A stretch of DNA of 26,143 bases from Cyanobacteria bacterium P01_D01_bin.73 (GTDB taxonomy: Bacteria; Cyanobacteriota; Cyanobacteriia; CACIAM-69d), in assembly GCA_039198915.1 (NCBI GenBank), contig JBCCTE010000001.1:1-26143 (forward strand), given 5' to 3'. Positions 799-26,143 of the stretch are shown piece after piece. Made by a program: the position numbers and the translations under genes. How positions within the stretch are numbered: position 1 is the stretch's first letter; each line of letters starts with the position of its first letter. The notes below the pieces were generated by a model, which did not search any database, was not told where the DNA came from, and saw nothing but the letters and a program-made list of their open reading frames with translations.

Positions 799-1071
799 CT
801 AAGAAGACCGCCGGAACATATACCCCACGGCATTGCCAGCGGTAAGGGCGATGGAGCTGGGGACAATCTGATCAGCCGGCAACTTCCCAGTGGCGGCAGC
901 TACCACCAAAGCAGCGGGGGCTCCTAGTGCCATCACTGCATGTTGATTGGCGATCGCCTGAGTCCGTTGTTTCTTAGTGGGTTGGGGCGATCGCTTAGCC
1001 GTGCTTTTGGTAGCAGTATTCTTTTTGGAGGCTCTGGGCTTAGGATTCCGAGTTTTTCTGGTAGTTGCCAT
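799..1071 (-). CDS. Small protein with basic K/R/T-rich N-terminus and hydrophobic C-terminus
   Basis: ATG at 1071 overlaps the upstream stop (TAATG), indicating translational coupling. C-terminal hydrophobic segments ALGAPAALVVAAA and SSIALTAGNAVGYMF. Confidence 0.65.
   Translation of the reverse strand: MATTRKTRNPKPRASKKNTATKSTAKRSPQPTKKQRTQAIANQHAVMALGAPAALVVAAATGKLPADQIVPSSIALTAGNAVGYMFRRSS
809..927 (+). repeat. 119-bp direct repeat, copy 1
   Basis: cgccggaacatatacccc...gcagcgggggctcctag is identical to 26025-26143. The left flanks differ (aagaagac vs cttgggag). Confidence 0.97.
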
Positions 1072-1391
1072 TAGTGACCCGCTGCCTTGCAAAATGCCTC
1101 AATCTGTTGATTCTTAGCGGCGGCTTCAGATTCTAAAGATGCAACCTTAGCGGCACTACCAGAAGCCCCAGCGGATATCCCGGCGCGGTACATGGTGAGT
1201 CCCACGGCGCCGGTGCCAAGCAAAATCATCAGGGTATAGGCGATCACCAACTTTGGGCTACCCTTTGGCGCTGGGGTTGTTGCTGGCTGAAGCTTCTGGC
1301 GATAGATCGGTATAGGTTGCCACGCTACGGAATCGGGAATGTCAGGGTGCTGCTGCGATGCCTGAGGCGTTGGTGGTGATGTAGTGTACAT
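1071..1391 (-). CDS. Hypothetical single-pass membrane protein
   Basis: 106 aa, TM segment LVIAYTLMILLGTGAVGLTMY, P/Q-rich N-terminus, operon context. Confidence 0.7.
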   Translation of the reverse strand: MYTTSPPTPQASQQHPDIPDSVAWQPIPIYRQKLQPATTPAPKGSPKLVIAYTLMILLGTGAVGLTMYRAGISAGASGSAAKVASLESEAAAKNQQIEAFCKAAGH

Positions 1392-1447: not shown

Positions 1448-1669
1448 TTAGCCTAGTCCGCTCAAAATGATGGTTTTGCGCCTGCCAGAGCCTCGAATTT
1501 CTACGCTGTATGGCGGGCGGTATCGACGTCGGGGTGCCACCATTCCTAATGGGGCTAGGTTGTGGTGATAGGCCATGTCGGTAGCTTGGGGCGATCGCGA
1601 AAGAACCAGAGATTGAATTCCGGCGGTTGCCAGGGCGATCGCACATGATGCGAGGAAGGTTTTAAGCAT
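1448..1669 (-). CDS. Small secreted-type peptide with RGSGRR motif (PatX-like)
   Basis: From ATG 1669 (overlapping the upstream gene end): MLKTFLASCAIALATAGIQS signal-like N-terminus and IRGSGRR near the C-terminus (codons at 1481-1495). Confidence 0.55.
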   Translation of the reverse strand: MLKTFLASCAIALATAGIQSLVLSRSPQATDMAYHHNLAPLGMVAPRRRYRPPYSVEIRGSGRRKTIILSGLG

Positions 1670-2003: not shown

Positions 2004-2249
2004 TCAATCGAAAAGCGAATCCAGAGCTTTGCCTGCGTCAAAGGGTTCGGATGGGGCGGCGGCGATCGCCGGGGTGTTGGGAACTGATGGAGCGCCGCTT
2101 ACCCAGGCATCGGTCTGAGTGCGGATCACGCCCTCCACCACAGCGCGGGGATTTACACCTTTTTTCAGCGCCGCCTCGATTACCGTTTCCCAGCAATCCG
2201 GTGCAAGCTTCATGGCTTTGTTGGCGGGCATGGTCAGGGTACGGGGCAT
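2004..2249 (-). CDS. Small partner of the ParM-like protein (candidate ParR-like adaptor)
   Basis: ATG at 2249 overlaps the actin gene stop (TAATG). 81 aa with a flexible P/A-rich tail ending ALDSLFD. Position matches type II partition adaptors. Confidence 0.55.
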   Translation of the reverse strand: MPRTLTMPANKAMKLAPDCWETVIEAALKKGVNPRAVVEGVIRTQTDAWVSGAPSVPNTPAIAAAPSEPFDAGKALDSLFD

Positions 2250-3283
2250 TAGGCGGCACCTCCCAAACGTTGAGCGTGTACCCACTGCCAATTGCCGATG
2301 CAGTTGGCACGGTGTGGGGCATCGGGAATCATGAACCGGGGCTTACCCGCCACCAGGTCGGATACCAAATTCGCCCCGCCGCCGGTGACCAGAATGCGGT
2401 CTACCATCCCCATCTGCGCCTGAAATTCAGCAGTAGTGGACGTGATAAACGACTTGAACCAGCGATCGCGAATCGGTCGCCACCAATCACCCCAGCTAAT
2501 CCCGGTGGATTCATAGCTGTGGGAGCCGTCCTGCAAACCTTCGAGAATGGCAGCCACTTTAGGGTGGGTGATGCCGTGGGCTCGTAGGGGCTGGGATAGT
2601 TTTGAGTTTTGGGCGATTAGATACGCCAAGCGCAGAACGCCATTTTTATCGCTGGTGAGCGATCGCACGGTGATTCCATTGGCATCGATAAGCCGCGCCA
2701 ACACAGTCCCACATCCCAGATCCAGCCCCAGAGTTAGCCCGCTACCCAAGCGCCCCTGGTTACGGCACAATGCCCAGCTCCCAAATAATTCGTCCAACAC
2801 TGTGACGCTGCGAATATCGATGCTGTAGCCAACGCCGTTGCGGCGGAATAAGAATGGTCCGGTTAAGTCTGCTGTAATTTGCTCACGCACCAGGTCATGA
2901 GAGTGGTGGCATAACACCAGATCAGCCTGATTAGTTTTGGATTTTGTGGGTAGCCCAGCCGCTACGAACAGGCGGATTAGTTCGGTTTTATTGCCGGTGG
3001 CAGCTACCTGGCAGGTGTCGTAGTAGGAAGCCTGTTGACCAACGTGGTACCGGGCACCGTCTACCTCGACGACGGGGGAATTTTTGACCGCTTGGATGGT
3101 TGGAGCGCCGTCGGGAATGGGAGCATACAGCGCCCGGATTAAACCATAGGAGCGCCCGTCGTAGATTTTGACGGCGGCGTTACCGGCGTCGATGGAAACC
3201 AAGGGTACTGGGGAAGCTGGGGCAGAAAATTGCGCAGGCGGCGGCGCGGGGGCGATGGTTGCCCCCTGTCGGGATGTGGTCAT
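2249..3283 (-). CDS. ParM/StbA-family actin-like ATPase
   Basis: Phosphate-1 VSIDAGNAAVK, phosphate-2 LGLDLGCGT, adenosine motif ILVTGGGAN. Likely start MTTSRQ at 3283 (ORF extends to 3448). Confidence 0.88.
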   Translation of the reverse strand: MTTSRQGATIAPAPPPAQFSAPASPVPLVSIDAGNAAVKIYDGRSYGLIRALYAPIPDGAPTIQAVKNSPVVEVDGARYHVGQQASYYDTCQVAATGNKTELIRLFVAAGLPTKSKTNQADLVLCHHSHDLVREQITADLTGPFLFRRNGVGYSIDIRSVTVLDELFGSWALCRNQGRLGSGLTLGLDLGCGTVLARLIDANGITVRSLTSDKNGVLRLAYLIAQNSKLSQPLRAHGITHPKVAAILEGLQDGSHSYESTGISWGDWWRPIRDRWFKSFITSTTAEFQAQMGMVDRILVTGGGANLVSDLVAGKPRFMIPDAPHRANCIGNWQWVHAQRLGGAA

Positions 3284-3534: not shown

Positions 3535-3636
3535 ATATCTATTTAGATATCAAAAAGATATTAATGCGATGATAGAATTTATATGCCAGGGAGAAATCGG
3601 CAATGATGCGAGAATTATTGATATCTAGATAGATAT
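3535..3636. promoter_or_regulatory. Two ATATCT-N4-AGATAT palindromes in the AT-rich divergent intergenic region
   Basis: 3535-3550 atatct-attt-agatat and 3621-3636 atatct-agat-agatat, plus a half-site agatat at 3556-3561. Confidence 0.6.
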
Positions 3637-5772: not shown

Positions 5773-7608
5773 GTGAATCATAGCGCATGTACACACACAC
5801 CTGGTACCAGTGAACCAGCAGCACCGCTTCAGGCGATCCAAAGCACCCTAATTCCCCTATTTCCCCAAAGATCGCCCCAGCGCCGGATCCAGCTCCGGGA
5901 CTACCAAACGCAGATGCTTCGGGAAATTTATCGAGCAATTCGTGGGAACCAGTCCCGAGTGTTGGCGATCGCCGTCATGGGCGCGGGCAAGACGGTCCTA
6001 GCTAGCAAAATTATGTCCGACGCCGTGAGCAAGGGACGGCGGGCGCTATTCCTAGTCAGCCTCAACTGCCTGCTGGACCAGGCGGCGGGCACCCTAGAAA
6101 AATTTGGGATCCGTTGCTCAGTCTTGCAGGGCGATCGCGATTTCGACACCGGCGCACCGGCGATCGTCGCCAGTCTCCAAACAATCGCCGCGCGGCAACG
6201 GCGGGGGCAGTCTCTGGGCCAGATCCTAGGGCGCAATTTTGGGGTGGTATTCCTCGATGAGGCTCACATCACCGCATGGGATAAAACCTACACCGCCATT
6301 TCAGACTGGCTTCCTAACACCGCCATCATCGGGCTCACTGCAACTCCATGGCGGCTCAGTAAAAAGCAATGGCTAGGGCAGCAATTTGAGAGTGCTGTTA
6401 TTGGACCCCAGCCCCTAGACATCATCAAAATGGGCGGCGCGGTCCCGGCTCGCATTTTTCGCTTGGACGGGGCAATCAAGGAAACCGAGCTAAAGGTGCG
6501 CCAGGGTGAGTACGCCGACAGCTCCATTGCTCGACAAGCAACAACGCCAGAAAGCCTCGCAATCGTATTGAACGGGTACCAAGAACATTGCAGCGATCGC
6601 CCGGCGCTAATGGTGGGGGCCACCGTCTCTCAGGCTCAAGCAACAGCCGACCATTTCAATCAGCACGGGATAAAAGCTGAGGTAATTACCGGCAAAACCA
6701 GCCACCGCGATCGCCAGGCAATCATCGCTCGCTTAGCCAGCGGTGCCACCCAAATCATTTGCTCAGTGGGTTGCCTGACCGCCGGTTTCGATTGCCCGCC
6801 AGTGTCAGCAATCTTATTTGTACGGAAAACAAAAAGCCGAGCATTATTCCATCAGGTGTGCGGTCGCGGCTCCCGTCCCCACCCTGGCAAAACCGACTAC
6901 CTAATCCTCGACTTTGGCAATAACCAAACCCATGGCAACCCCATGGCAGCTCAGGATTATTCCATCGCCGAACCGGAGCAGCATGAGCTGGTGACGGTGG
7001 ATAAAGCCTGTCCCGCTTGCTTAGAAGTGGTGAGCATCTTCGTTCAGATTTGCCCCAACTGTGGGCATGAATTTAGCGCCAATACTGCTGCGGATGATGG
7101 TACCGAGGAATTAATCCAAGGCACTCTTTCCGAGCGATTCACGAAACAACAGCTCGCGCAACGACAATGGCTACGTGATGTGCGACGGCGGGCATTTGCG
7201 CAGGACGAAAACCCTAGCCGGTGTATTCAGCAATTTATCGATACCCACGGCTTTACACCACCAAAAGACTGGACCCACGGCGCAGCTCTAGGGCGCACCA
7301 ACGCCAGCGTTAGCCGCCGCTTGCAATACGTTGAATATCTAGAACGCCATTGCACTGAAGCAAAAGACGTTGAGGGCTGGCTTGCCTACCACTGCCAGCT
7401 TGAATTTGGCTGCGATTTTGAGCGACTGATGGAGCTACCTGGGTGGTGGGACGTTTTGCGAATACCCCCTGACTCGGGACCGGAAGAGGTCAGGGAAGCC
7501 TATCGCCGGGCATCACTAATGGCTTCCACCCAGGCAGATTTCCACCAGTTGAACACGGCGATCGCGTCGGCTAAGGCAGATTTGCAGGGGGTACCTGCAA
7601 ATGGCTAA
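5773..7608 (+). CDS. DEAH-box SF2 helicase (RadD/YejH-like) with Zn finger and C-terminal J-domain-like region
   Basis: LRDYQ, MGAGKT, DEAH, TATP, TAGFDCP, QVCGRGSR, CPAC/CPNC. C-terminal WWDVLRIPPDSGPEEVREAYRR. Start codon uncertain. Confidence 0.9.
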   Translation: MNHSACTHTPGTSEPAAPLQAIQSTLIPLFPQRSPQRRIQLRDYQTQMLREIYRAIRGNQSRVLAIAVMGAGKTVLASKIMSDAVSKGRRALFLVSLNCLLDQAAGTLEKFGIRCSVLQGDRDFDTGAPAIVASLQTIAARQRRGQSLGQILGRNFGVVFLDEAHITAWDKTYTAISDWLPNTAIIGLTATPWRLSKKQWLGQQFESAVIGPQPLDIIKMGGAVPARIFRLDGAIKETELKVRQGEYADSSIARQATTPESLAIVLNGYQEHCSDRPALMVGATVSQAQATADHFNQHGIKAEVITGKTSHRDRQAIIARLASGATQIICSVGCLTAGFDCPPVSAILFVRKTKSRALFHQVCGRGSRPHPGKTDYLILDFGNNQTHGNPMAAQDYSIAEPEQHELVTVDKACPACLEVVSIFVQICPNCGHEFSANTAADDGTEELIQGTLSERFTKQQLAQRQWLRDVRRRAFAQDENPSRCIQQFIDTHGFTPPKDWTHGAALGRTNASVSRRLQYVEYLERHCTEAKDVEGWLAYHCQLEFGCDFERLMELPGWWDVLRIPPDSGPEEVREAYRRASLMASTQADFHQLNTAIASAKADLQGVPANG

Positions 7609-10600
7609 TCAATTCCACTACTACCGCCAAGGCGACTGCCCAATCTGTGGAGGTGCTGGGCATAAATCCAATAAAGTTTGCCGGTCCACCACCACCGATG
7701 ACGGACGCATTAAGGTCCATTGCTGGGGTGGTGGCGACGCTCTTAAAGGCTGGGGATATGTGGGCGATGATACTCACGGCATGGCCCAGTACATCGAAGG
7801 CTGGGGCGATCGCCGGGATATGGACCGGGATGCCAGAGAGCGCAAAGCAACGGCGGCGCGGGCACAGGCGGAAAAGGAGCGGCTGGGGCGATCGCTAACC
7901 ATTGAACGGGATGCCACTTACCGGAAATGGCAGGACAATCAACGTCTGAACCAGCGGGACCGGGACGAATTAACCCGGCGTGGTCTCTTGCCCAATGAAA
8001 TTCAATTAGCGCAGGAGCTGGGCTGGTTACGCCGCTGGGAGAAAGGGTCACAGCTATTTGGTCCTGCCAATATTCCCGGCGTAAATCATTGGGGGCTTGG
8101 TGGGCAATCGGGACTGGCGATCGCAGCGCCTAATTCTGACGGGCTAATCGCAGGCTTCCAAGTCAAGCCGGATAGCCAGGGCGATGGACCCAAATATCGC
8201 TGGCTAGCTGGCTGCGCCCTGCGTAATAATGAGCAGCCCATTCCGGTATTTCAGCATCCAGATCGCCGTGGGGATGTGGAAATCTGGATTACTGAGGGTT
8301 TTCTAAAGGCACTCGTTACAGCGTTTCTGGCATGGCGGCTAGGGCTCACCCATGTCGTAGTGGTGGGCTGTGGCGGTTCCAACTGGGCAAGCGCACCGGC
8401 GCAATGGGAACGCACCCTGCAGCGCCTCAATCCCACCGCAATCTACCTGTTACCCGACGCCGGCGCGGCCCAAAACGAAAACATCCTGGGGCAAGCGGAT
8501 AGGCTGCGATCGCTCCTACGCGGGCTGGGACATACTCTCAAATTTAAGTGGTGGGGGCAATTCGATAAATCGGGCAAGGGCAACCTAGACCCTGACGAAG
8601 TACCCACCCAAACCATCATCGATGCACCGGCGCTACCCGCTATCCCCGCCGGCGCGATTCAGCTTTGGAGCGAAACCCCCCAGCGACAGGCGTTACTGGT
8701 ACCCGGCGTAGGAATGCCATTGCTGTATGAGCCGGGCGATCGCCAGCGGGTGTGGGAGGGCATGGAAGATCGGGCGATCGCCAGTGGGCAGTCGTTAGTG
8801 GTGCTAGATACTAGCGAAGCCGGAAGCGGCAAATCGCGGGACGCCGGAATATTTCTGCACAACGCCCCCAATGGCACCCAGCGAGTGTTTGCGTCTCAGG
8901 AATATCGCAACCCATCGGATCCCACGTTAGATGCCCTGCCAGAGCTAGAAGCGAAGCACCTGGGCTTGGTCGGCAACGACATCGATGGGCGGTATATCCG
9001 TCGCACCCCTAAAGCTGGTGAAGAGCCCAACATTGAGCCGTCATGCGCCAAAGCACCCTATTTCCACAAGGCTCACTCCATGGGAGTGCAGGCGATCGCC
9101 GGTGCGGATTGCCATGCCTGTCGTACTTGCCCCATGGCAGATATCACCTATAGGGAAGGGGAGGTAGTAGCTCTAACCTGCCAACACCTAAATCGTAAGC
9201 GGGCTACCAAAGATACCCCCGCCTACCGGTGCCATCCCAGCACCATAGCCAAGCCCAGCGAGCGCTACGATTCCCAGACCGTAATCATTGATGAAGCCAC
9301 ACCGGCGCTATCAGCGGTGCAATCCCAAAGCTTTAGCCCTAATGATCTAGCCCAAGATTTTCAGGCACTCAAGGTAACGGCACCGGAGCCGGCTGCCATC
9401 ATTGAACCCCTTGTAGATGCCGATATTTTGGCGCTCCACAAGCTTTCTGCCAGCAAAGACCCAGAGGATTACTACGGGCTATCAAGTTACGCCCTGATGG
9501 AATCTCAAGCTCAGGCTGTTAAAGCTGTGGAGAGCCAACTAGAGGCATCTCCACACTTCGACTACATCTCCGCTGCCACACCGTGGGAATGGCTTGCCAA
9601 ACGCCTGGATAAAGCAACCCGCACACTACCTGATCATCACCTGGGCTCCACCCTGGAAGAGCACCTATGGGCACTGGATAACCTGGCCCGAGCACGATTT
9701 TTTGGAGAGCGGTTACGAGCAACAACCGGGCAACACAGTCGAGCCACCATGCCCCGCACCAACATTGCCAATGGTGATCGCCCGGCAACTCTACAGCTAA
9801 GCAATGCCAACGCCCGCACTAAGGCGCAATTCAAAACTGCTAACCGGCTGTCGATACTGTTAGATGCAACCGGCTCTCCCGCGCACCTACGACGCATCAC
9901 GGGACAACCGGTGTTCTGGATTCAGCAGCGGCGATCGCAGTTTCCCAACCTCACCATCAAACTCATCACCGGCACCGACAAGCTGAAGGTAAATCGTGAG
10001 CAATCAACGCGCGACCGCGCCCGATTATTGGCCCAGCGAGTTGCGGATGCTCATCAAGGACAATCCATCGGGCTTATTGATTACCAGCGCTACCGGGACG
10101 ACTATGACGGACTGGGCTTCAAATTCCTGTCCCGATTTGTCGAGTCCCGTGGCACCAACCGGGCTAAAGATTTGGATGCGATCGCCCTAATGGGTGTCGG
10201 CGTTTCTAACCTGGGGCAGCTGGCCATTCAGTATGAGTTACTGCACCGGTGCACTATTGCTGACCTTGCCCATGACCGTCGATTCCTCGCGTGGGTACGA
10301 AGGCGATCGCTGGACCTGACCGTTCAGGAAATTTCCAGACTTCGAGCCCAATGGTCATCTACGTCCCAGACGGTGTACGTCGCCGGGGCGAGCAAGACGG
10401 CGATCGCCCGACTGCAAAAGGAGTTTCCAGGGGCAACCGTCGAAGTGGTGGACGTAATGCGAATCAGCCCCCAATCGGCAACAGAGAAAGCCCAGCGTAC
10501 TGCCAACGCGGTTATCGATAGTGCAATAACTACCGCTAAAGACACCGGAGTGATGCCTTCCCAACAAGCCTTAGCGAAGGCGACCGGACGCTCGCTGTCC

Positions 10601-10966
10601 ACGGTACAACGAGCAGTTAAGTCTGTTTGCGGACAAGGCTACCGAGCATTTTCCAAAGTGGTCAAACGGCTATTAGAAACCATTAATAGTGGTTTGACCA
10701 CTTTCCAAAACAGTCTTGAATTGGAGACTTTGCGTCAGGAATTAGACGCTATTGGCTGTGGGCATTTCTTTGGCAGCGCCAACGCTTTAGAGACCATGGC
10801 CACATTGGAGGAGCATTTTAAGAATTACGGGCAAGCTCAGTTTCTACGGGCAATCGAAGGCGTTTCGACTTATGGGCGTGCCGGTATAGATCGGGCGATC
10901 GCAGCTGCGGCTGTAGACCAGGCGATCACCGCTCCAAAACCGGTGCTCATATTGCCACCGGAATAA
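7601..10966 (+). CDS. Plasmid replication primase-helicase (ZnF-Toprim/DUF3854-like-helicase-HTH; cyanobacterial CyRepA-like)
   Basis: N-terminal CPIC...C...HC, Toprim IWITEGFLKA and YLLPDAG, P-loop EAGSGKS, VIIDEA, LLDATG, C-terminal HTH SQQALAKATGRSLSTVQRAVK. Overlaps the helicase gene by 8 bp. Confidence 0.75.
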   Translation: MANQFHYYRQGDCPICGGAGHKSNKVCRSTTTDDGRIKVHCWGGGDALKGWGYVGDDTHGMAQYIEGWGDRRDMDRDARERKATAARAQAEKERLGRSLTIERDATYRKWQDNQRLNQRDRDELTRRGLLPNEIQLAQELGWLRRWEKGSQLFGPANIPGVNHWGLGGQSGLAIAAPNSDGLIAGFQVKPDSQGDGPKYRWLAGCALRNNEQPIPVFQHPDRRGDVEIWITEGFLKALVTAFLAWRLGLTHVVVVGCGGSNWASAPAQWERTLQRLNPTAIYLLPDAGAAQNENILGQADRLRSLLRGLGHTLKFKWWGQFDKSGKGNLDPDEVPTQTIIDAPALPAIPAGAIQLWSETPQRQALLVPGVGMPLLYEPGDRQRVWEGMEDRAIASGQSLVVLDTSEAGSGKSRDAGIFLHNAPNGTQRVFASQEYRNPSDPTLDALPELEAKHLGLVGNDIDGRYIRRTPKAGEEPNIEPSCAKAPYFHKAHSMGVQAIAGADCHACRTCPMADITYREGEVVALTCQHLNRKRATKDTPAYRCHPSTIAKPSERYDSQTVIIDEATPALSAVQSQSFSPNDLAQDFQALKVTAPEPAAIIEPLVDADILALHKLSASKDPEDYYGLSSYALMESQAQAVKAVESQLEASPHFDYISAATPWEWLAKRLDKATRTLPDHHLGSTLEEHLWALDNLARARFFGERLRATTGQHSRATMPRTNIANGDRPATLQLSNANARTKAQFKTANRLSILLDATGSPAHLRRITGQPVFWIQQRRSQFPNLTIKLITGTDKLKVNREQSTRDRARLLAQRVADAHQGQSIGLIDYQRYRDDYDGLGFKFLSRFVESRGTNRAKDLDAIALMGVGVSNLGQLAIQYELLHRCTIADLAHDRRFLAWVRRRSLDLTVQEISRLRAQWSSTSQTVYVAGASKTAIARLQKEFPGATVEVVDVMRISPQSATEKAQRTANAVIDSAITTAKDTGVMPSQQALAKATGRSLSTVQRAVKSVCGQGYRAFSKVVKRLLETINSGLTTFQNSLELETLRQELDAIGCGHFFGSANALETMATLEEHFKNYGQAQFLRAIEGVSTYGRAGIDRAIAAAAVDQAITAPKPVLILPPE

Positions 10967-12480: not shown

Positions 12481-14373
12481 CTATATCGGTGATTGAGCCT
12501 CCTTTTGCGCGGATTGATTATTAGCTGATATTCCAAAGGTGTCGGAAGTGGGATCGTGCGATCGCTCAGCCTGTGGCGATCGCAGATGTGTTGGGCTTTC
12601 CGCGACTCGCGCGGACCCTTTAGGCTGCACTTTTCGCCGTCTGTCCCGCGTAGCGGGGATTTCGGGATGATTCACCAAGTTGGACGAGAGAATATCCCCC
12701 GACTCGCGCACCAGAGTACGAACCTGACTATCACCGCTCTCAGGCGAACTACATAGGCCGTCAAAACGGCTAGGGGCATCGCTCACCGACACGAGCGCAC
12801 CCTTCTTAGACATCACTGGCGATAAGCTCAGTGGCTTTAAGCGTCCCGGTAGAATCCGGGATTTAGAATCAAGCGCATCGCTCAAGATGTTGGCGGCACC
12901 AACCCCATCACGATCACCTGTCCATCCGCAGCTACGGCAGACGTAGAGTCGTCCCCGTGGTTTGCGTCTAGCCCCGCACTTGGGACAAGTTTGAGAGGTA
13001 TAGCGCTCGCTTTGTAGCGATAGCGTTGCGCCATGTTCCTCTAATTTCTGCTGTAAAAGATCGCGTTGACGTCCAACCTCCCATAGGGCATTTCGCTTAG
13101 ATTGAAGCTTGCGAGTTTCCCCCTTTTTACGTCCCTTAGGGATGTTGAACACATCTCCAAAGTAAAGCGTTCCAACATCCTGGGCGATGCACCAATTAGC
13201 AATTCGCTTAGTCACACAGTGGTTTGCATAACGTAGCTTTCGCCGGGCGATCGCGTTATGGCGCCCAAGGGCATGCTTCAGTTTCCAATCCCTATTTGAG
13301 TAACGACGACGATACCGAAATGTCTCAGGAGAATTGCCCGCTGCAACGTGGCGCTCTAACTGTTCTCTGCGACGGTGGGCTGCAATGCGTTGGTGGGCGT
13401 ATTTCGTACCCGCCCCTGAAGACTTCGCCTCCATAGACGTCATTGTTTCCCGTTCTTCTGAGGAAAGGTAATAGCGCACTTGTCCACGGAACACCCGCGC
13501 CCTTTTTCGGTTAATAGCCTTTTGTGATCGTTCCCTCTGGCGCTTAACAGCAAGGATGTCATGCCCCGACACCGAACGAATACGCCCTTTGCTATCAGCT
13601 ACAACCATCGCTCGAAGCTGACCAGGATCGACCGCTGCCACATTAGTCAGCGCTTTCACCTCATCTGCATCTGGCTTTGGTAAGGAATAGGAAAGGTGAA
13701 TCCATGCATCTCCCCCGTCATCAAAAGAGATGGATGCTTGCAAGACTTCCATTCCTACCATCTTGGGAGGAACTGATACGGTGACAAAACCACCAATCTG
13801 AGTTTTAGACCCCAGCTGCAGGTGAGTACCGACCCACCGACACTCTGCCTTCAGGACATCCCACTTACGCCCTGATGGCTTACGAACAGAGCGGAACCGC
13901 ATCGGCAACTGAGCCCGGTAATTTCCCTTCTTGCGATGAGTCCAGAAGCCTTTGATTTGACCACGCATCCCCCGGCAGAGTGCGGATACTTGCTTAGAGC
14001 TAATGCCATACTTGCACCCGGCATCGAATGGAGCTGGTTGCCGGTCCGTCAAAGCTTTCAGGTACGGCCATGGCTCTAGCATGGCGTCCTTCCGGTACTC
14101 AGCTACCGGTACCCCAGCTATTACTTCACCTGTGTCCGCAAAAATACGGCGGGCTCGCTCAGCTCCTTTTCCTTTGATAAAGCAATGTCGAACTGCATCC
14201 CCATTAGCAATTGGGAATATTGGCTGTGAATGCAACCTCATTGCATTAACCAGCTCGTTGTAACACCATCGTTGAGCAGCCATTAGCGCCGCAACCTGTG
14301 CCCGCTTCTTTCTCGTCAAGCGCACTGGCGTGACGACAGTTCGCGACAGTTTAGTGGTTTTATCTTTCGCCAT
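12481..14373 (-). CDS. tnpB: CRISPR-adjacent TnpB/Cas12f-like RNA-guided RuvC protein
   Basis: N-terminal helix AQRWCYNELV, RuvC-I AAVD249PG, RuvC-II LYFG406D, QSE456RYTSQTC, Zn finger C463/466/479/482, RuvC-III DRD489GVGAANI. Stop codon 21 bp from the first repeat. Confidence 0.9.
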   Translation of the reverse strand: MAKDKTTKLSRTVVTPVRLTRKKRAQVAALMAAQRWCYNELVNAMRLHSQPIFPIANGDAVRHCFIKGKGAERARRIFADTGEVIAGVPVAEYRKDAMLEPWPYLKALTDRQPAPFDAGCKYGISSKQVSALCRGMRGQIKGFWTHRKKGNYRAQLPMRFRSVRKPSGRKWDVLKAECRWVGTHLQLGSKTQIGGFVTVSVPPKMVGMEVLQASISFDDGGDAWIHLSYSLPKPDADEVKALTNVAAVDPGQLRAMVVADSKGRIRSVSGHDILAVKRQRERSQKAINRKRARVFRGQVRYYLSSEERETMTSMEAKSSGAGTKYAHQRIAAHRRREQLERHVAAGNSPETFRYRRRYSNRDWKLKHALGRHNAIARRKLRYANHCVTKRIANWCIAQDVGTLYFGDVFNIPKGRKKGETRKLQSKRNALWEVGRQRDLLQQKLEEHGATLSLQSERYTSQTCPKCGARRKPRGRLYVCRSCGWTGDRDGVGAANILSDALDSKSRILPGRLKPLSLSPVMSKKGALVSVSDAPSRFDGLCSSPESGDSQVRTLVRESGDILSSNLVNHPEIPATRDRRRKVQPKGSARVAESPTHLRSPQAERSHDPTSDTFGISANNQSAQKEAQSPI

Positions 14374-23934: not shown

Positions 23935-24297
23935 GTGACTTATTCATTTACGCTCACCGGCGCGATCACTCCCAAAGCCCGCCCCAGAGTTACCCGTAAC
24001 GGCACTTTTATGCCTCGGAAATATCGAGAATGGAAAACACAGGCGATCACTTCCTTGCAACTGCAATGGAGCAACGCACCACCAATATCGGAGCCCGTGG
24101 GAATCGAGATTCTGCTGACGGGCAAGCACCCGCGCCGGGGCGATAGCGACAATGTAGCGGGGGCAATCTTGGATGCTTTGCAGGATGCGGGGGTACTCAA
24201 AAACGACAATTTAAAGGCGGTTCCACGGCTTGCCATTCAGTTGAAGTGGGATAAAGACAGAGACCCGATAGCAACCGTAGCTTTGACAGCAATTTAA
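23935..24297 (+). CDS. rusA: RusA-family Holliday junction resolvase
   Basis: PKARPRVT, YREWK, GDSDNVAGAILDAL, LKNDN. Likely start GTG at 23935. Confidence 0.88.
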   Translation: MTYSFTLTGAITPKARPRVTRNGTFMPRKYREWKTQAITSLQLQWSNAPPISEPVGIEILLTGKHPRRGDSDNVAGAILDALQDAGVLKNDNLKAVPRLAIQLKWDKDRDPIATVALTAI

Positions 24298-24331
24298 AAT
24301 CCCGGTGGCGTAATCTTGCTACCGGGATTTT
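24296..24331. terminator. Bidirectional terminator between convergent rusA and ATPase genes
   Basis: aaaatcccggtggc-gtaatctt-gctaccgggatttt, 14-bp stem with one G-U. Confidence 0.75.
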
Positions 24332-24334
24332 TGG

Positions 24335-24446
24335 TGTTGACGGAGGATTGTTGGTTATGCCCCGTTGACGGTCTGTTGTCAGAGTTGTTGACACCCCGTT
24401 GACGCCCGTAATTACTAGCTGTTGACGCTGTTGTCGCCTGTTGACG
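24335..24446 (+). repeat. Cluster of eight co-oriented YGTTGWCR octamers
   Basis: GTTGAC at 24336, 24364, 24387, 24398, 24421, 24440 and GTTGTC at 24375, 24430. Confidence 0.8.
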
Positions 24447-25737
24447 GTGGGTACCATTTCAGCCCCGTTTCGCCGCCTTTGAGGCTGCCAACGCCTCGAC
24501 CTGCCAACTTTTCCAATAAGGCGTTAATCGCCTCGCTAGGCAGCTCTCTGAAAGCTCGTTTTCCTTGTTTCAGTGCCCGCGCTGTTACTTCTCTTTTATC
24601 GGACCCAAACTCCTGAATTCGGTTGAGCAGTTGTTCATCCTCATCCCGTCCAACGACGACCGGCTCGTCCAATTCAAATAATGAATTTAGGTTAGCTACA
24701 AAGGGATTCGATGATCGCTCTGGAGTGGCGATCACTGTTTCTGTAGGGCGCACTGGCGGCAACAGAAGTGGCGGGATCCATTGGTCGATTGCTACCGATT
24801 CCGCATCCTTCAGTTTTACCGCTGGGCGCTTCAGCTCACCCAAAAATGCAGGGCGCACGCCGTTGGGAGCGTTAGGGTCTGGGGTAGCCAGTAACTTTAG
24901 TTCCAGCAACGCATCATCGCGGGTTTGGGCCATTCCTTTCTTGCCACCGACGCAATCGAGCGATCGCCCATGGCTTACGAATATCACCGCCATCCCCACT
25001 TTGCGAATGTCGGATAGAGCCACGCCTAGGAAGACAGCGGCGGCTTTGCAACGACTAGCCCAGTGGGTAAATTCCTCGCAAACAATGGTGATGGGTGAAA
25101 AGCTTGTAACGCCCTGTGACCGGGCTTCATAGCGCTCTTTTACCGTCTGTGCGAATTCAGCGATCGCCCCATCTACAGCGGGATAATCCATGCCCGCACC
25201 AACGATGGCCACGCCAGGGTATTCCCAATCACCCTTAGACCAATGAGGATCGCAGACGATAACCTGATGCCCACCTTGCAAGCGCTCAATCACCAGGCGA
25301 TGCGCTTGGGTGGTTTTACCGCTTCCCTGTGGGCCCCAAATGAGGACTGACGGATAACTGCGGAATAGTGCCCACCACTGGGATTGTGGCGTGGGTCCAT
25401 CTTCCAAAAGCGGCTGCTCAGCTGGGGCTAATTGGGCTTGTACCGTAGTCCACATTCCAGATACGGCGGCTAAAGACATATCACTTTGGGTTTGGAGGAA
25501 TTGCCCAAAGGCTTGCAACTCATGTTGAGCGTAAACACCACCAAGGGGCGCATAACGCTTGTGCTGGCGGCGCTGAACCCACGCTGCACTTAGGCATAAT
25601 CCAGCCGCACCGGTGGTGATCGCCTTAGCCAATCTGCCCAGCTGCGGCGGGGTGCTCACCAAGAACAGCAACACCGACAATCCCAGTAGACACCGGCTCT
25701 GTAGCAGAAATCGGGCGCTAACCTCTCTGGGATTCAT
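24415..25737 (-). CDS. Membrane-anchored FtsK/HerA-like P-loop ATPase with probable C-terminal winged helix
   Basis: Two N-terminal hydrophobic segments, Walker A GPQGSGKT, VIVCDPH, Walker B-like IVCEEF, IRKVGMAVIFVSH. Likely start at 25737 (ATGA overlap). Confidence 0.8.
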   Translation of the reverse strand: MNPREVSARFLLQSRCLLGLSVLLFLVSTPPQLGRLAKAITTGAAGLCLSAAWVQRRQHKRYAPLGGVYAQHELQAFGQFLQTQSDMSLAAVSGMWTTVQAQLAPAEQPLLEDGPTPQSQWWALFRSYPSVLIWGPQGSGKTTQAHRLVIERLQGGHQVIVCDPHWSKGDWEYPGVAIVGAGMDYPAVDGAIAEFAQTVKERYEARSQGVTSFSPITIVCEEFTHWASRCKAAAVFLGVALSDIRKVGMAVIFVSHGRSLDCVGGKKGMAQTRDDALLELKLLATPDPNAPNGVRPAFLGELKRPAVKLKDAESVAIDQWIPPLLLPPVRPTETVIATPERSSNPFVANLNSLFELDEPVVVGRDEDEQLLNRIQEFGSDKREVTARALKQGKRAFRELPSEAINALLEKLAGRGVGSLKGGETGLKWYPPSTGDNSVNS

Positions 25738-25979
25738 AGCGTTATCCCCCCTGCAATTCCAAGGGCGATCGCCAACGCATCCAGCAGCCATTCCGATAGC
25801 CGAAACTTAAGCAGCATCGCCACACCAATGCCCACCAACAGCACCGCAAATACAGCACCGAACCACAGCCCTAAGTCGGAGTTGTGGTGTAGAAGAAAGC
25901 CGATTAGTTGGGTAATGATGCTGGTGCCTATGGCGATTGCACCGGCACGATAAAGGTGTAATTCCAAATTCATAGTCAA
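25734..25979 (-). CDS. Small multi-pass membrane protein
   Basis: 81 aa, mostly hydrophobic (2-3 TM), coupled to the ATPase gene. Confidence 0.75.
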   Translation of the reverse strand: MTMNLELHLYRAGAIAIGTSIITQLIGFLLHHNSDLGLWFGAVFAVLLVGIGVAMLLKFRLSEWLLDALAIALGIAGGITL

Positions 25980-26011: not shown

Positions 26012-26143
26012 TTAGGCTTGGGAGCGCCGGAACATATACCCCACGGCATTGCCAGCGGTAAGGGCGATGGAGCTGGGGACAATCTGATCAGCCGGCAACT
26101 TCCCAGTGGCGGCAGCTACCACCAAAGCAGCGGGGGCTCCTAG
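26012..26143 (-). CDS. 3' part of a second copy of the 799-1071 gene (ends ...GYMFRRSQA*)
   Basis: The repeat encodes LGAPAALVV...GYMFRR, then SQA and a TAA stop at 26012-26014. Confidence 0.6.
   Translation of the reverse strand, partial: LGAPAALVVAAATGKLPADQIVPSSIALTAGNAVGYMFRRSQA
26025..26143 (+). repeat. 119-bp direct repeat, copy 2 (truncated by window end)
   Basis: Identical to 809-927. True length is unknown because the window ends here. Confidence 0.97.

Follow-up and report, generated by a model that had tools for sequence, protein, structure and literature searches.

The 26,143-nucleotide stretch of contig JBCCTE010000001.1 from Cyanobacteria bacterium P01_D01_bin.73, hereafter the window, carries near its end the gene of a membrane-anchored ATPase (P0001), and the 3' end of this gene is overlapped and followed by an array of eight short repeats. 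The gene closes an operon of small membrane proteins headed by an actin-like protein, and we favour, at a probability of roughly 55%, the explanation that operon and array form a relaxase-independent translocase of double-stranded DNA (dsDNA) which resembles the TraB proteins of Streptomyces and, like them with their clt loci, possesses a docking site of its own. A TraB protein recognises through its C-terminus the clt of its own plasmid, which is made of 8-bp direct repeats, unprocessed dsDNA is pumped, and the spd genes for membrane proteins are co-transcribed with the TraB genes (PMC4447253, PMC12857230). A search of the full-text literature returned no description of a TraB/clt-like module in cyanobacteria.

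The repeat array and its counterparts at homologous loci

Exact copies of the octamer YGTTGWCR start on the plus strand at positions 24335, 24363, 24374, 24386, 24397, 24420, 24429 and 24439, with start-to-start spacings of 28, 11, 12, 11, 23, 9 and 10, in exact agreement with the spacings of the initial annotation, whose eight co-oriented copies over and after the 3' end of the ATPase gene are thereby confirmed. Of the 11 occurrences of the word in the window, where 4.5 would be expected, 8 fall within the 112 bp of the array. A scan of the whole assembly (G000; 3.3 Mb in 573 contigs, 72% complete, with the window as contig C1) for three or more co-oriented copies within 100 bp identified the array as the sole such place, and both the array and its uniqueness in this genome are direct observations; outside the array the strand bias of the word (12 versus 6) is not significant. 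The array reaches over the final 32 bp of the ATPase gene, whose stop codon is at 24415-24417: three octamers lie in the coding tail, where they spell the last codons of the protein (...KWYPP-STGDNSVNS-stop), and the remaining five fall past the stop codon, ahead of a hairpin. In the orientation of the gene, the word of the array reads GTCAAC/GACAAC.

From its flanking runs and its position between convergent genes the hairpin looks like a bidirectional terminator, which would place the array upstream of it, within the ATPase transcript. An Rfam scan of the array for a function at the level of RNA gave no match, and the RNA folding z-score of the region (-3) is probably owed mainly to the terminator hairpin, which supplies the dominant stem of the predicted fold. 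Many of the related arrays described below hold inverted copies, and this argues for recognition as dsDNA.

The 3' ends of homologous genes were taken from the searched genomes and from PLSDB plasmids, and in many cyanobacteria a cluster of short repeats is found at the same position, composed of a word that is specific to the lineage. The word is TGACAA at G001:C664, CACCAA(C/T), with inverted copies too, at G002:C29, G001:C461 and G001:C80, GTCCACA in G056, CCTGACA in G032, and AGACAC(C), in 8-10 copies, on the Nostoc plasmids pNPUN05 (from Nostoc punctiforme), pCC7120delta and UHCC0926 pn5; other families use GTCTTG, ACCCGTCAC, TTACGGCA, TTGCTAC, CGACCCA or GGACAG. Counting exact 6-mers in either orientation within a 360-bp stretch that contains the stop codon, we find seven or more copies of one hexamer at 12 of 36 loci, as compared to 2.1% of 1168 control windows drawn from the same loci, the 36 loci being phylogenetically non-independent although their words differ. 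That homologues would carry repeat clusters at this position had been put forward as a check in the initial annotation, and the conserved position with its changing words is now a matter of observation. As the first copies sit inside the last codons in several subfamilies, the C-terminal peptide shifts with the word. The gene on the 3' side of the array varies among loci (RusA, an unknown 499-aa protein, an integrase, a response regulator or a small open reading frame (ORF)), and as such the constant partner of the array is the ATPase gene, which speaks against a site belonging to the neighbouring gene.

The ATPase and its resemblance to known DNA translocases

The ATPase likely starts at the ATG at 25737, given that this codon forms an ATGA overlap with the upstream gene and that the resulting 440 aa match the length of the homologues. 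Its motifs comprise a Walker A sequence (GPQGSGKT), a DPH motif thereafter and a Walker B sequence (IVCEE), and its membrane anchor is predicted as helices 21-46 and 53-83, with a hydropathy segment at 27-52. An AlphaFold model built with 23 homologues (predicted local distance difference test, pLDDT, of 73 overall and above 90 in the core) consists of two N-terminal membrane helices, a RecA-like core, a disordered linker and a domain of three helices and a hairpin. The best structural match of the core in VIA-align is TcpA of pCW3 (Z 16.5, root-mean-square deviation (rmsd) 3.1 A over 190 residues), followed in VIA-align and Foldseek by FtsK (Z 14.8), EssC/EccC (about 14), and then PilT and RecA; structures of VirD4/TrwB are not among the 50 best core matches, an absence which by itself is not decisive. 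When the family profile was compared by hhalign with Tra of the Streptomyces plasmid pIJ101, a probability of 90% was obtained (E 1.5e-6, 131 columns) for an alignment that runs from Walker A to the sensor region and includes the DP(K/H) motif, and the corresponding probability with TcpA is 71%. Searches with the single sequence were far less informative: the matches from Pfam, NCBIfam and PHROGs were weak or confined to the P-loop, comparison with the PDB by sequence and by profile gave matches to Walker A only, and among Pfam families neither Ftsk_gamma nor T4SS-DNA_transf / TraG-D_C matched the ATPase. The tail domain, folded alone, reaches a pLDDT of about 85 in its core, and its 50 best VIA-align matches are all winged-helix domains (Z up to 8.9); FtsK gamma of E. 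coli (2j5p) superposes on it with an rmsd of 2.2 A over 63 columns in Foldseek, and is not a privileged match. The structural models therefore predict an FtsK-like motor fold with a C-terminal tail that is a generic winged helix.

Motor and tail are inherited with some independence, as can be seen directly from two relatives. P0003 shares 93% identity with the window ATPase in the core and 64% in the winged helix, and ends in a different tail, whereas P0007 shares 21% in the core and 77% in the winged helix, with the very same tail encoded by the repeats. Both relatives have kept the N-terminal membrane part. This mosaic indicates that winged helix and array have been exchanged separately from the motor core. 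Domain swaps at the tail of TraB reportedly switch specificity for clt. Within this close clade two very different types of motor core (about 21-26% identity) are joined to nearly the same N-terminal membrane part and winged helix. A further subfamily (P0016-P0019, and L041 on G318:C17) bears a C-terminal GIY-YIG nuclease instead of a winged helix of the window type, and at L041, the one locus of this kind examined, no repeat array follows the gene.

Genes for a relaxase or for a type IV secretion system (T4SS) were sought at several levels. The scanned ORFs of the window matched no relaxase and no T4SS component. Four relaxase models of Pfam (PF03432, Relaxase; PF01076, Mob_Pre; PF08751, TrwC; PF03389, MobA_MobL) found no match in five module-bearing genomes, G000, G001, G002, G056 and G032, of which G000 is the 72% complete assembly of the window and the other four reach a completeness of 93-100%; the VirB4 model PF03135 (CagE_TrbE_VirB) was likewise without a match in these five. 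Lastly, tblastn with the relaxase and MobC of pNPUN05 returned nothing from the window, from G002:C29 or from the whole genome. In the initial annotation the window had been described as encoding a membrane-anchored FtsK/HerA-like ATPase with a probable winged helix, no relaxase or T4SS genes had been recognised, and an analogy to TraB/clt had been proposed. That such genes are not recognised holds for the ORFs scanned in the window and for the five genomes under the five Pfam models, the structural and profile matches group the ATPase with TcpA, FtsK, EssC/EccC and Tra and not with VirD4/VirB4, and the analogy is supported by every in silico test available, namely those of fold, tail and arrays and the searches that detected no relaxase or VirB4.

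The window matches the anatomy of the TraB/clt systems almost point for point. With the TraB, TraA and Tra proteins of pSVH1, pWTY27, pJV1 and pIJ101 its ATPase shares, as predicted, an anchor in the membrane at the N-terminus, a motor of the FtsK type and a winged helix at the C-terminus; small membrane proteins co-transcribed with the motor and filamentous hosts are common to both as well. The Streptomyces systems lack a relaxase, and none was detected here by the searches given above. The clt loci consist of direct repeats of 7-9 bp, to which TraB binds by the winged helix at its C-terminus (PMC3583192, PMC4447253, PMC12857230). As with the arrays described here, the repeats are short and direct, sometimes inverted, and differ among plasmids. 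In pWTY27, whose TraA has two N-terminal membrane helices, clt takes in 16 bp inside traA and 159 bp after it, with four 7-bp direct repeats, so that part of the repeats lies inside the 3' end of the gene as in the window, while pJV1 has nine 9-bp repeats and inverted repeats (PMC3583192). The differences are nonetheless considerable. The window ATPase shows no significant BLAST similarity to the proteins of pIJ101, the match of the core being at the level of profiles only; it is shorter (440 as against 650-770 aa); it is encoded last in an operon, after an actin-like gene, whereas the Streptomyces counterpart comes first; and its host is a diderm cyanobacterium rather than an actinobacterium. 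Homologues of TraB have been found in Actinobacteria only, and those of TcpA in Firmicutes only (PMC3548315). Judged by its sequence, the ATPase is to be regarded as analogous to TraB, not as a demonstrable member of the TraB family, and likewise not as a sequence-level member of the FtsK_SpoIIIE family.

Other translocases offer partial parallels. TcpA of the Clostridium perfringens plasmid pCW3, the closest structure to the core, has two N-terminal membrane helices. According to annotation its partners are the relaxase TcpM and an ATPase of the VirB4 type, neither type of which was found in the window or the host genome, and unlike the cyanobacterial ATPase it has no annotated C-terminal winged helix with an adjacent array. 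FtsK and SpoIIIE are membrane-anchored dsDNA pumps whose C-terminal winged helix reads 8-bp words, the FtsK orienting polar sequences (KOPS) and SpoIIIE recognition sequences (SRS); KOPS, however, are dispersed and polar along the chromosome, while the cyanobacterial module has one local array and a plasmid-borne gene. To our knowledge, TdtA of Thermus thermophilus has neither a winged helix nor a cis-acting repeat array. TdtA is likewise an ATPase of a mobile element that serves DNA donation without a classical T4SS, and in the transjugation of which it is part the donor pushes DNA out and the competence system of the recipient takes it up (PMC5365140).

Proposed mechanism and competing explanations

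If the module is indeed a TraB/clt-like translocase, its N-terminal helices would anchor the ATPase in the cytoplasmic membrane, where it would probably assemble into a ring-shaped FtsK-like motor, and its C-terminal winged helices would dock on the repeat array at the 3' end of its own gene. The motor so loaded may then pump double-stranded plasmid DNA through the membrane or the septum, either into a neighbouring cell or from cell to cell down the filament. The passage would be formed or positioned with the help of the small membrane proteins of the operon, and the actin-like protein may bring the plasmid to its site. The binding of the array by the winged helix, dsDNA as the substrate and cell-to-cell transfer as the outcome are what we infer from this combination of parts. 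That filamentous diderm cyanobacteria in general possess a relaxase-free form of conjugation or intrafilament spread of dsDNA plasmids, in which an FtsK-like pump docks on a clt-like array, is a wider proposition that we hold tentatively and at somewhat less than even odds; the same reserve attaches to the notion that such a system would be functionally equivalent to TraB/clt/Spd of Streptomyces, having either evolved separately or diverged beyond recognition.

Several points weigh against a TraB/clt-like translocase. We know of no precedent for the crossing of two envelopes, as a diderm host demands, by one ATPase and a few small proteins. The actin-like partition gene at the head of the operon fits a role in segregation as well. 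About half of the homologous loci have no clear array within 300 bp, and loci in genomes without HetR mostly show no obvious array, although one has an array. Moreover, winged helix and array are adjacent, and their co-inheritance, as read from the sequences, could reflect linkage alone. Last, P0001 does not reach the FtsK_SpoIIIE family PF01580 at E<=0.01, whereas Tra of pIJ101 (9.3e-10) and TcpA (5.2e-18) do, the relative P0007, at 8e-4, staying below the cut-off; common descent with TraB in particular is therefore not shown.

The main rival explanation is a pump for plasmid segregation, which would act at the closing septum together with the ParM-like protein, without horizontal transfer, and for which the array would be a loading or polarity site comparable to KOPS/SRS. 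We consider this unlikely, albeit deserving of serious attention: the first gene of the operon is ParM-like not only in the window but in G002:C29 and on pNPUN05 too, and an FtsK-like motor with a winged helix could read short DNA words. The cut-off of PF01580 is not reached anywhere in G000 or in the 99%-complete congener G002, and a review of cyanobacterial 'FtsK' homologues lists those of the HerA clade (YjgR) only (PMC7766704), with which the absence from these two genomes agrees; taken together, these make a plasmid-borne substitute for FtsK conceivable. The plasmid, however, already has a ParA gene paired with a ribbon-helix-helix (RHH) gene in addition to its ParM-type gene, several small membrane or secreted proteins are unexpected for partition, and the array is single and local rather than a dispersed polarity signal, with no significant strand bias among the copies outside it (the 12 versus 6 given above). 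The proximity of the partition genes also prompts the idea that the array serves another protein altogether, as the iterons of an origin or as a centromere for ParA/RHH or ParM, and that its place beside the ATPase gene is fortuitous. Both kinds of site typically consist of short phased direct repeats, and the ParA and RHH genes lie about 0.6-1.4 kb from the array. Yet the array stays with the ATPase gene where the downstream genes differ and no ParA adjoins, it invades the ATPase coding tail in several subfamilies, the probable replicase (7601-10966) is 13 kb away, and the ParM operon is preceded by two palindromes that are distinct from the array; the type II centromere of ParMRC, furthermore, is an array upstream of parM, while here the array is at the far 3' end of the operon, inside the ATPase gene. 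An origin or centromere is, in our estimation, quite improbable.

A little less improbable than an origin or centromere, but still doubtful, is a TcpA-like coupling protein for relaxase-dependent conjugation or mobilisation of single-stranded DNA, to which the array would be an accessory binding site. TcpA is after all the best structural match, some homologues bear the NCBI name 'type IV secretory system conjugative DNA transfer family protein', and 24 of the 36 PLSDB plasmids with distant homologues are typed as mobilisable by MOB-suite, pNPUN05, which carries MobC and a MOBP relaxase, being an example. On the other hand, the four relaxase families and VirB4 are unmatched in the five module-bearing genomes, no Pfam domain of type IV coupling proteins is reported for the ATPase, and the relaxases of the Nostoc plasmids belong to three classes (MOBP, MOBV and MOBF) with no T4SS called, on account of which they are read as separate, independent modules. 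It is conceivable, lastly, that the protein packages the genome of a membrane-containing virus or a plasmid-virus hybrid and that the array is a pac-like site, since FtsK-HerA ATPases with small membrane proteins do package PRD1-type viruses, one of the weak PHROG matches is a terminase, and the plasmid has phage-like genes (Bro-N, RusA, integrase). We regard this as very improbable: no capsid or virion gene was recognised in the window, the Nostoc replicons with the module were deposited as plasmids, and the ATPase has a membrane anchor of its own.

The operon, its plasmid and the distribution of the module

The features of the module are collected below.

Features of the ATPase operon and the repeat array, with coordinates in the window
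Feature	Coordinates	Strand	Basis or remark
Membrane-anchored FtsK/TcpA/TraB-like ATPase, 440 aa (predicted)	24415..25737	-	ORF open to 25791; structure prediction, profile comparison
N-terminal membrane region of the ATPase, P0001 residues 21-83	25543..25731	-	predicted helices
P-loop motor core, P0001 residues 136-335	24787..25386	-	predicted structure
C-terminal winged-helix domain, P0001 residues 382-447	24451..24648	-	predicted structure
Coding tail PSTGDNSVNS, spelled by 3 repeats	24418..24450	-	translation; varies in relatives along with the repeat word
Array of 8 co-oriented 8-bp repeats, proposed clt-like cis-acting docking site	24335..24446	+	motif scan, genome-wide scan
Hairpin with A-run and T-run at its flanks	24296..24331	.	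shared by convergent RusA and ATPase genes
79-aa protein, two membrane helices predicted	25734..25973	-	ATGA overlap, i.e. translational coupling to the ATPase
97-aa basic single-pass membrane protein, 3' end on the circle	26012..26143	-	continues from 928-1092; second copy of the end at 799-927
106-aa single-pass membrane protein	1071..1391	-	conserved in G002:C29
73-aa protein with a signal peptide and a terminal RGSGR motif (PatX-like)	1448..1669	-	conserved in the G002:C29 operon
Actin-like (ParM/ALP) ATPase, first gene of the operon	2249..3283	-	ParM-like head also in G002:C29 and pNPUN05

The contig ends in 122 bp (26022-26143) that duplicate positions 806-927 with 99% identity, and on the minus strand the end of the window encodes the same C-terminus as the 97-aa gene (799-1092), followed by the 79-aa protein and the ATPase. 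In G002:C29 the genes for a ParM-like protein, a signal-peptide protein, the 106-aa and 97-aa proteins, a protein with two transmembrane segments and the ATPase are contiguous in this order, and from this order and the terminal repeat we conclude that the plasmid is a circle of about 25.2 kb which closes at 26143=927. The position of the ATPase as the last gene of the operon on the circle, as it had been proposed, is thereby correct, while the join differs from the one envisaged. Bases 1-805 (38% GC, no HIP1 sites, no convincing ORF) form a spur, perhaps a variant junction or a branch of the assembly.

Outside the module the 54 kb of G002:C29 have no resemblance to the window, and operon and array are a self-contained module. 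A gene for a membrane partner occupies the position of the 79-aa gene in the relatives. The layout on pNPUN05 comprises a divergent ParG-like gene, ParM, six small proteins and a multi-pass membrane protein, which is translationally coupled to a 575-600-aa 'ATP-binding protein' as the ATPase, and the module of pCC7120delta, compared beyond its first gene, is similar. The small proteins of the operon belong to no Pfam family, in the window and on pNPUN05 alike, and have no similarity to the Spd/Kil proteins of pIJ101; a role like that of Spd would be ascribed to them by analogy only. The end of the 73-aa protein (...RGSGRR...) contains a motif like that of the HetR inhibitors PatX/PatS, and the sequence RYRP..Y...RGSGRR is conserved in the orthologous protein of G002:C29 (at about 13277-13456, L021). 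HetR itself is encoded in all five of the module host genomes tested.

Elsewhere on the plasmid, a 16-bp palindrome, ATATCTAnnTAGATAT, occurs in two copies (3535-3550 and 3621-3636) upstream of the ParM-like operon, and these are candidates for an operator or a centromere other than the array. An ORF of 1121 aa begins within a ResIII/DEAD helicase gene, the pair spanning 5773-10966 on the plus strand, and Atlas feature neighbours of the latter (7601-10966) are Toprim/primase and CyRepA-like proteins; the two genes are probably the replication module of the plasmid. For the same reason it is unlikely that the 1121-aa ORF is a hidden relaxase. No origin could be located from the GC skew of the window.

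A homologue of the ATPase is found at E<=1e-12 in 44 of the 400 Cyanophyceae genomes sampled, and in none from two small-genome families, and the PLSDB matches are all cyanobacterial; a profile search of the whole library at E<=1e-30 brings the family to 344 representatives at 50% identity. With HetR taken as a marker of filamentous lineages, the module is present in 36 of 210 genomes that encode HetR and in 8 of the 190 that do not. An exclusive tie to filamentous hosts is rejected as an absolute rule by these eight HetR-negative genomes, at least one of whose loci has an array. A family from HetR-negative genomes (f5: L057, L058, L026, L051 and L056; 435-445 aa) has the same membrane anchor and winged helix, but in most cases the stop codon is immediately followed by a further gene and an array is not obvious; at L057 AAGTTGTAC is repeated 4-5 times about 110 bp downstream of the ATPase gene, and L058 has two TGTCTCAAGACA palindromes.

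The module is best described as a cyanobacterial variant of an FtsK-like translocase with a cis-acting repeat site. Conjugation of the TraB type, with dsDNA, has been regarded as peculiar to mycelial Actinobacteria (PMC3548315), and about 88% of 424 cyanobacterial plasmids were judged 'likely immobile' for want of a relaxase or of a complete set of conjugation genes (PMC8600333). The plasmid pIJ101 (L060, NC_001387.1) is itself typed as non-mobilizable by MOB-suite in PLSDB despite its documented conjugal transfer by tra and clt, and plasmids with transfer of the TraB type would escape typing of this kind. If the wider proposition on filamentous cyanobacteria is true, many cyanobacterial plasmids classed as 'non-mobilisable' would be self-transmissible. 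Because Nostoc/Anabaena sp. PCC 7120, a common model strain of the laboratory, carries this module with its array on pCC7120delta, the transfer hypothesis can be tested directly. The ATPase family is sizeable and unannotated; should its members move plasmids, the view of gene flow among cyanobacteria would change, and the module could serve as a transfer tool for cyanobacterial genetics.

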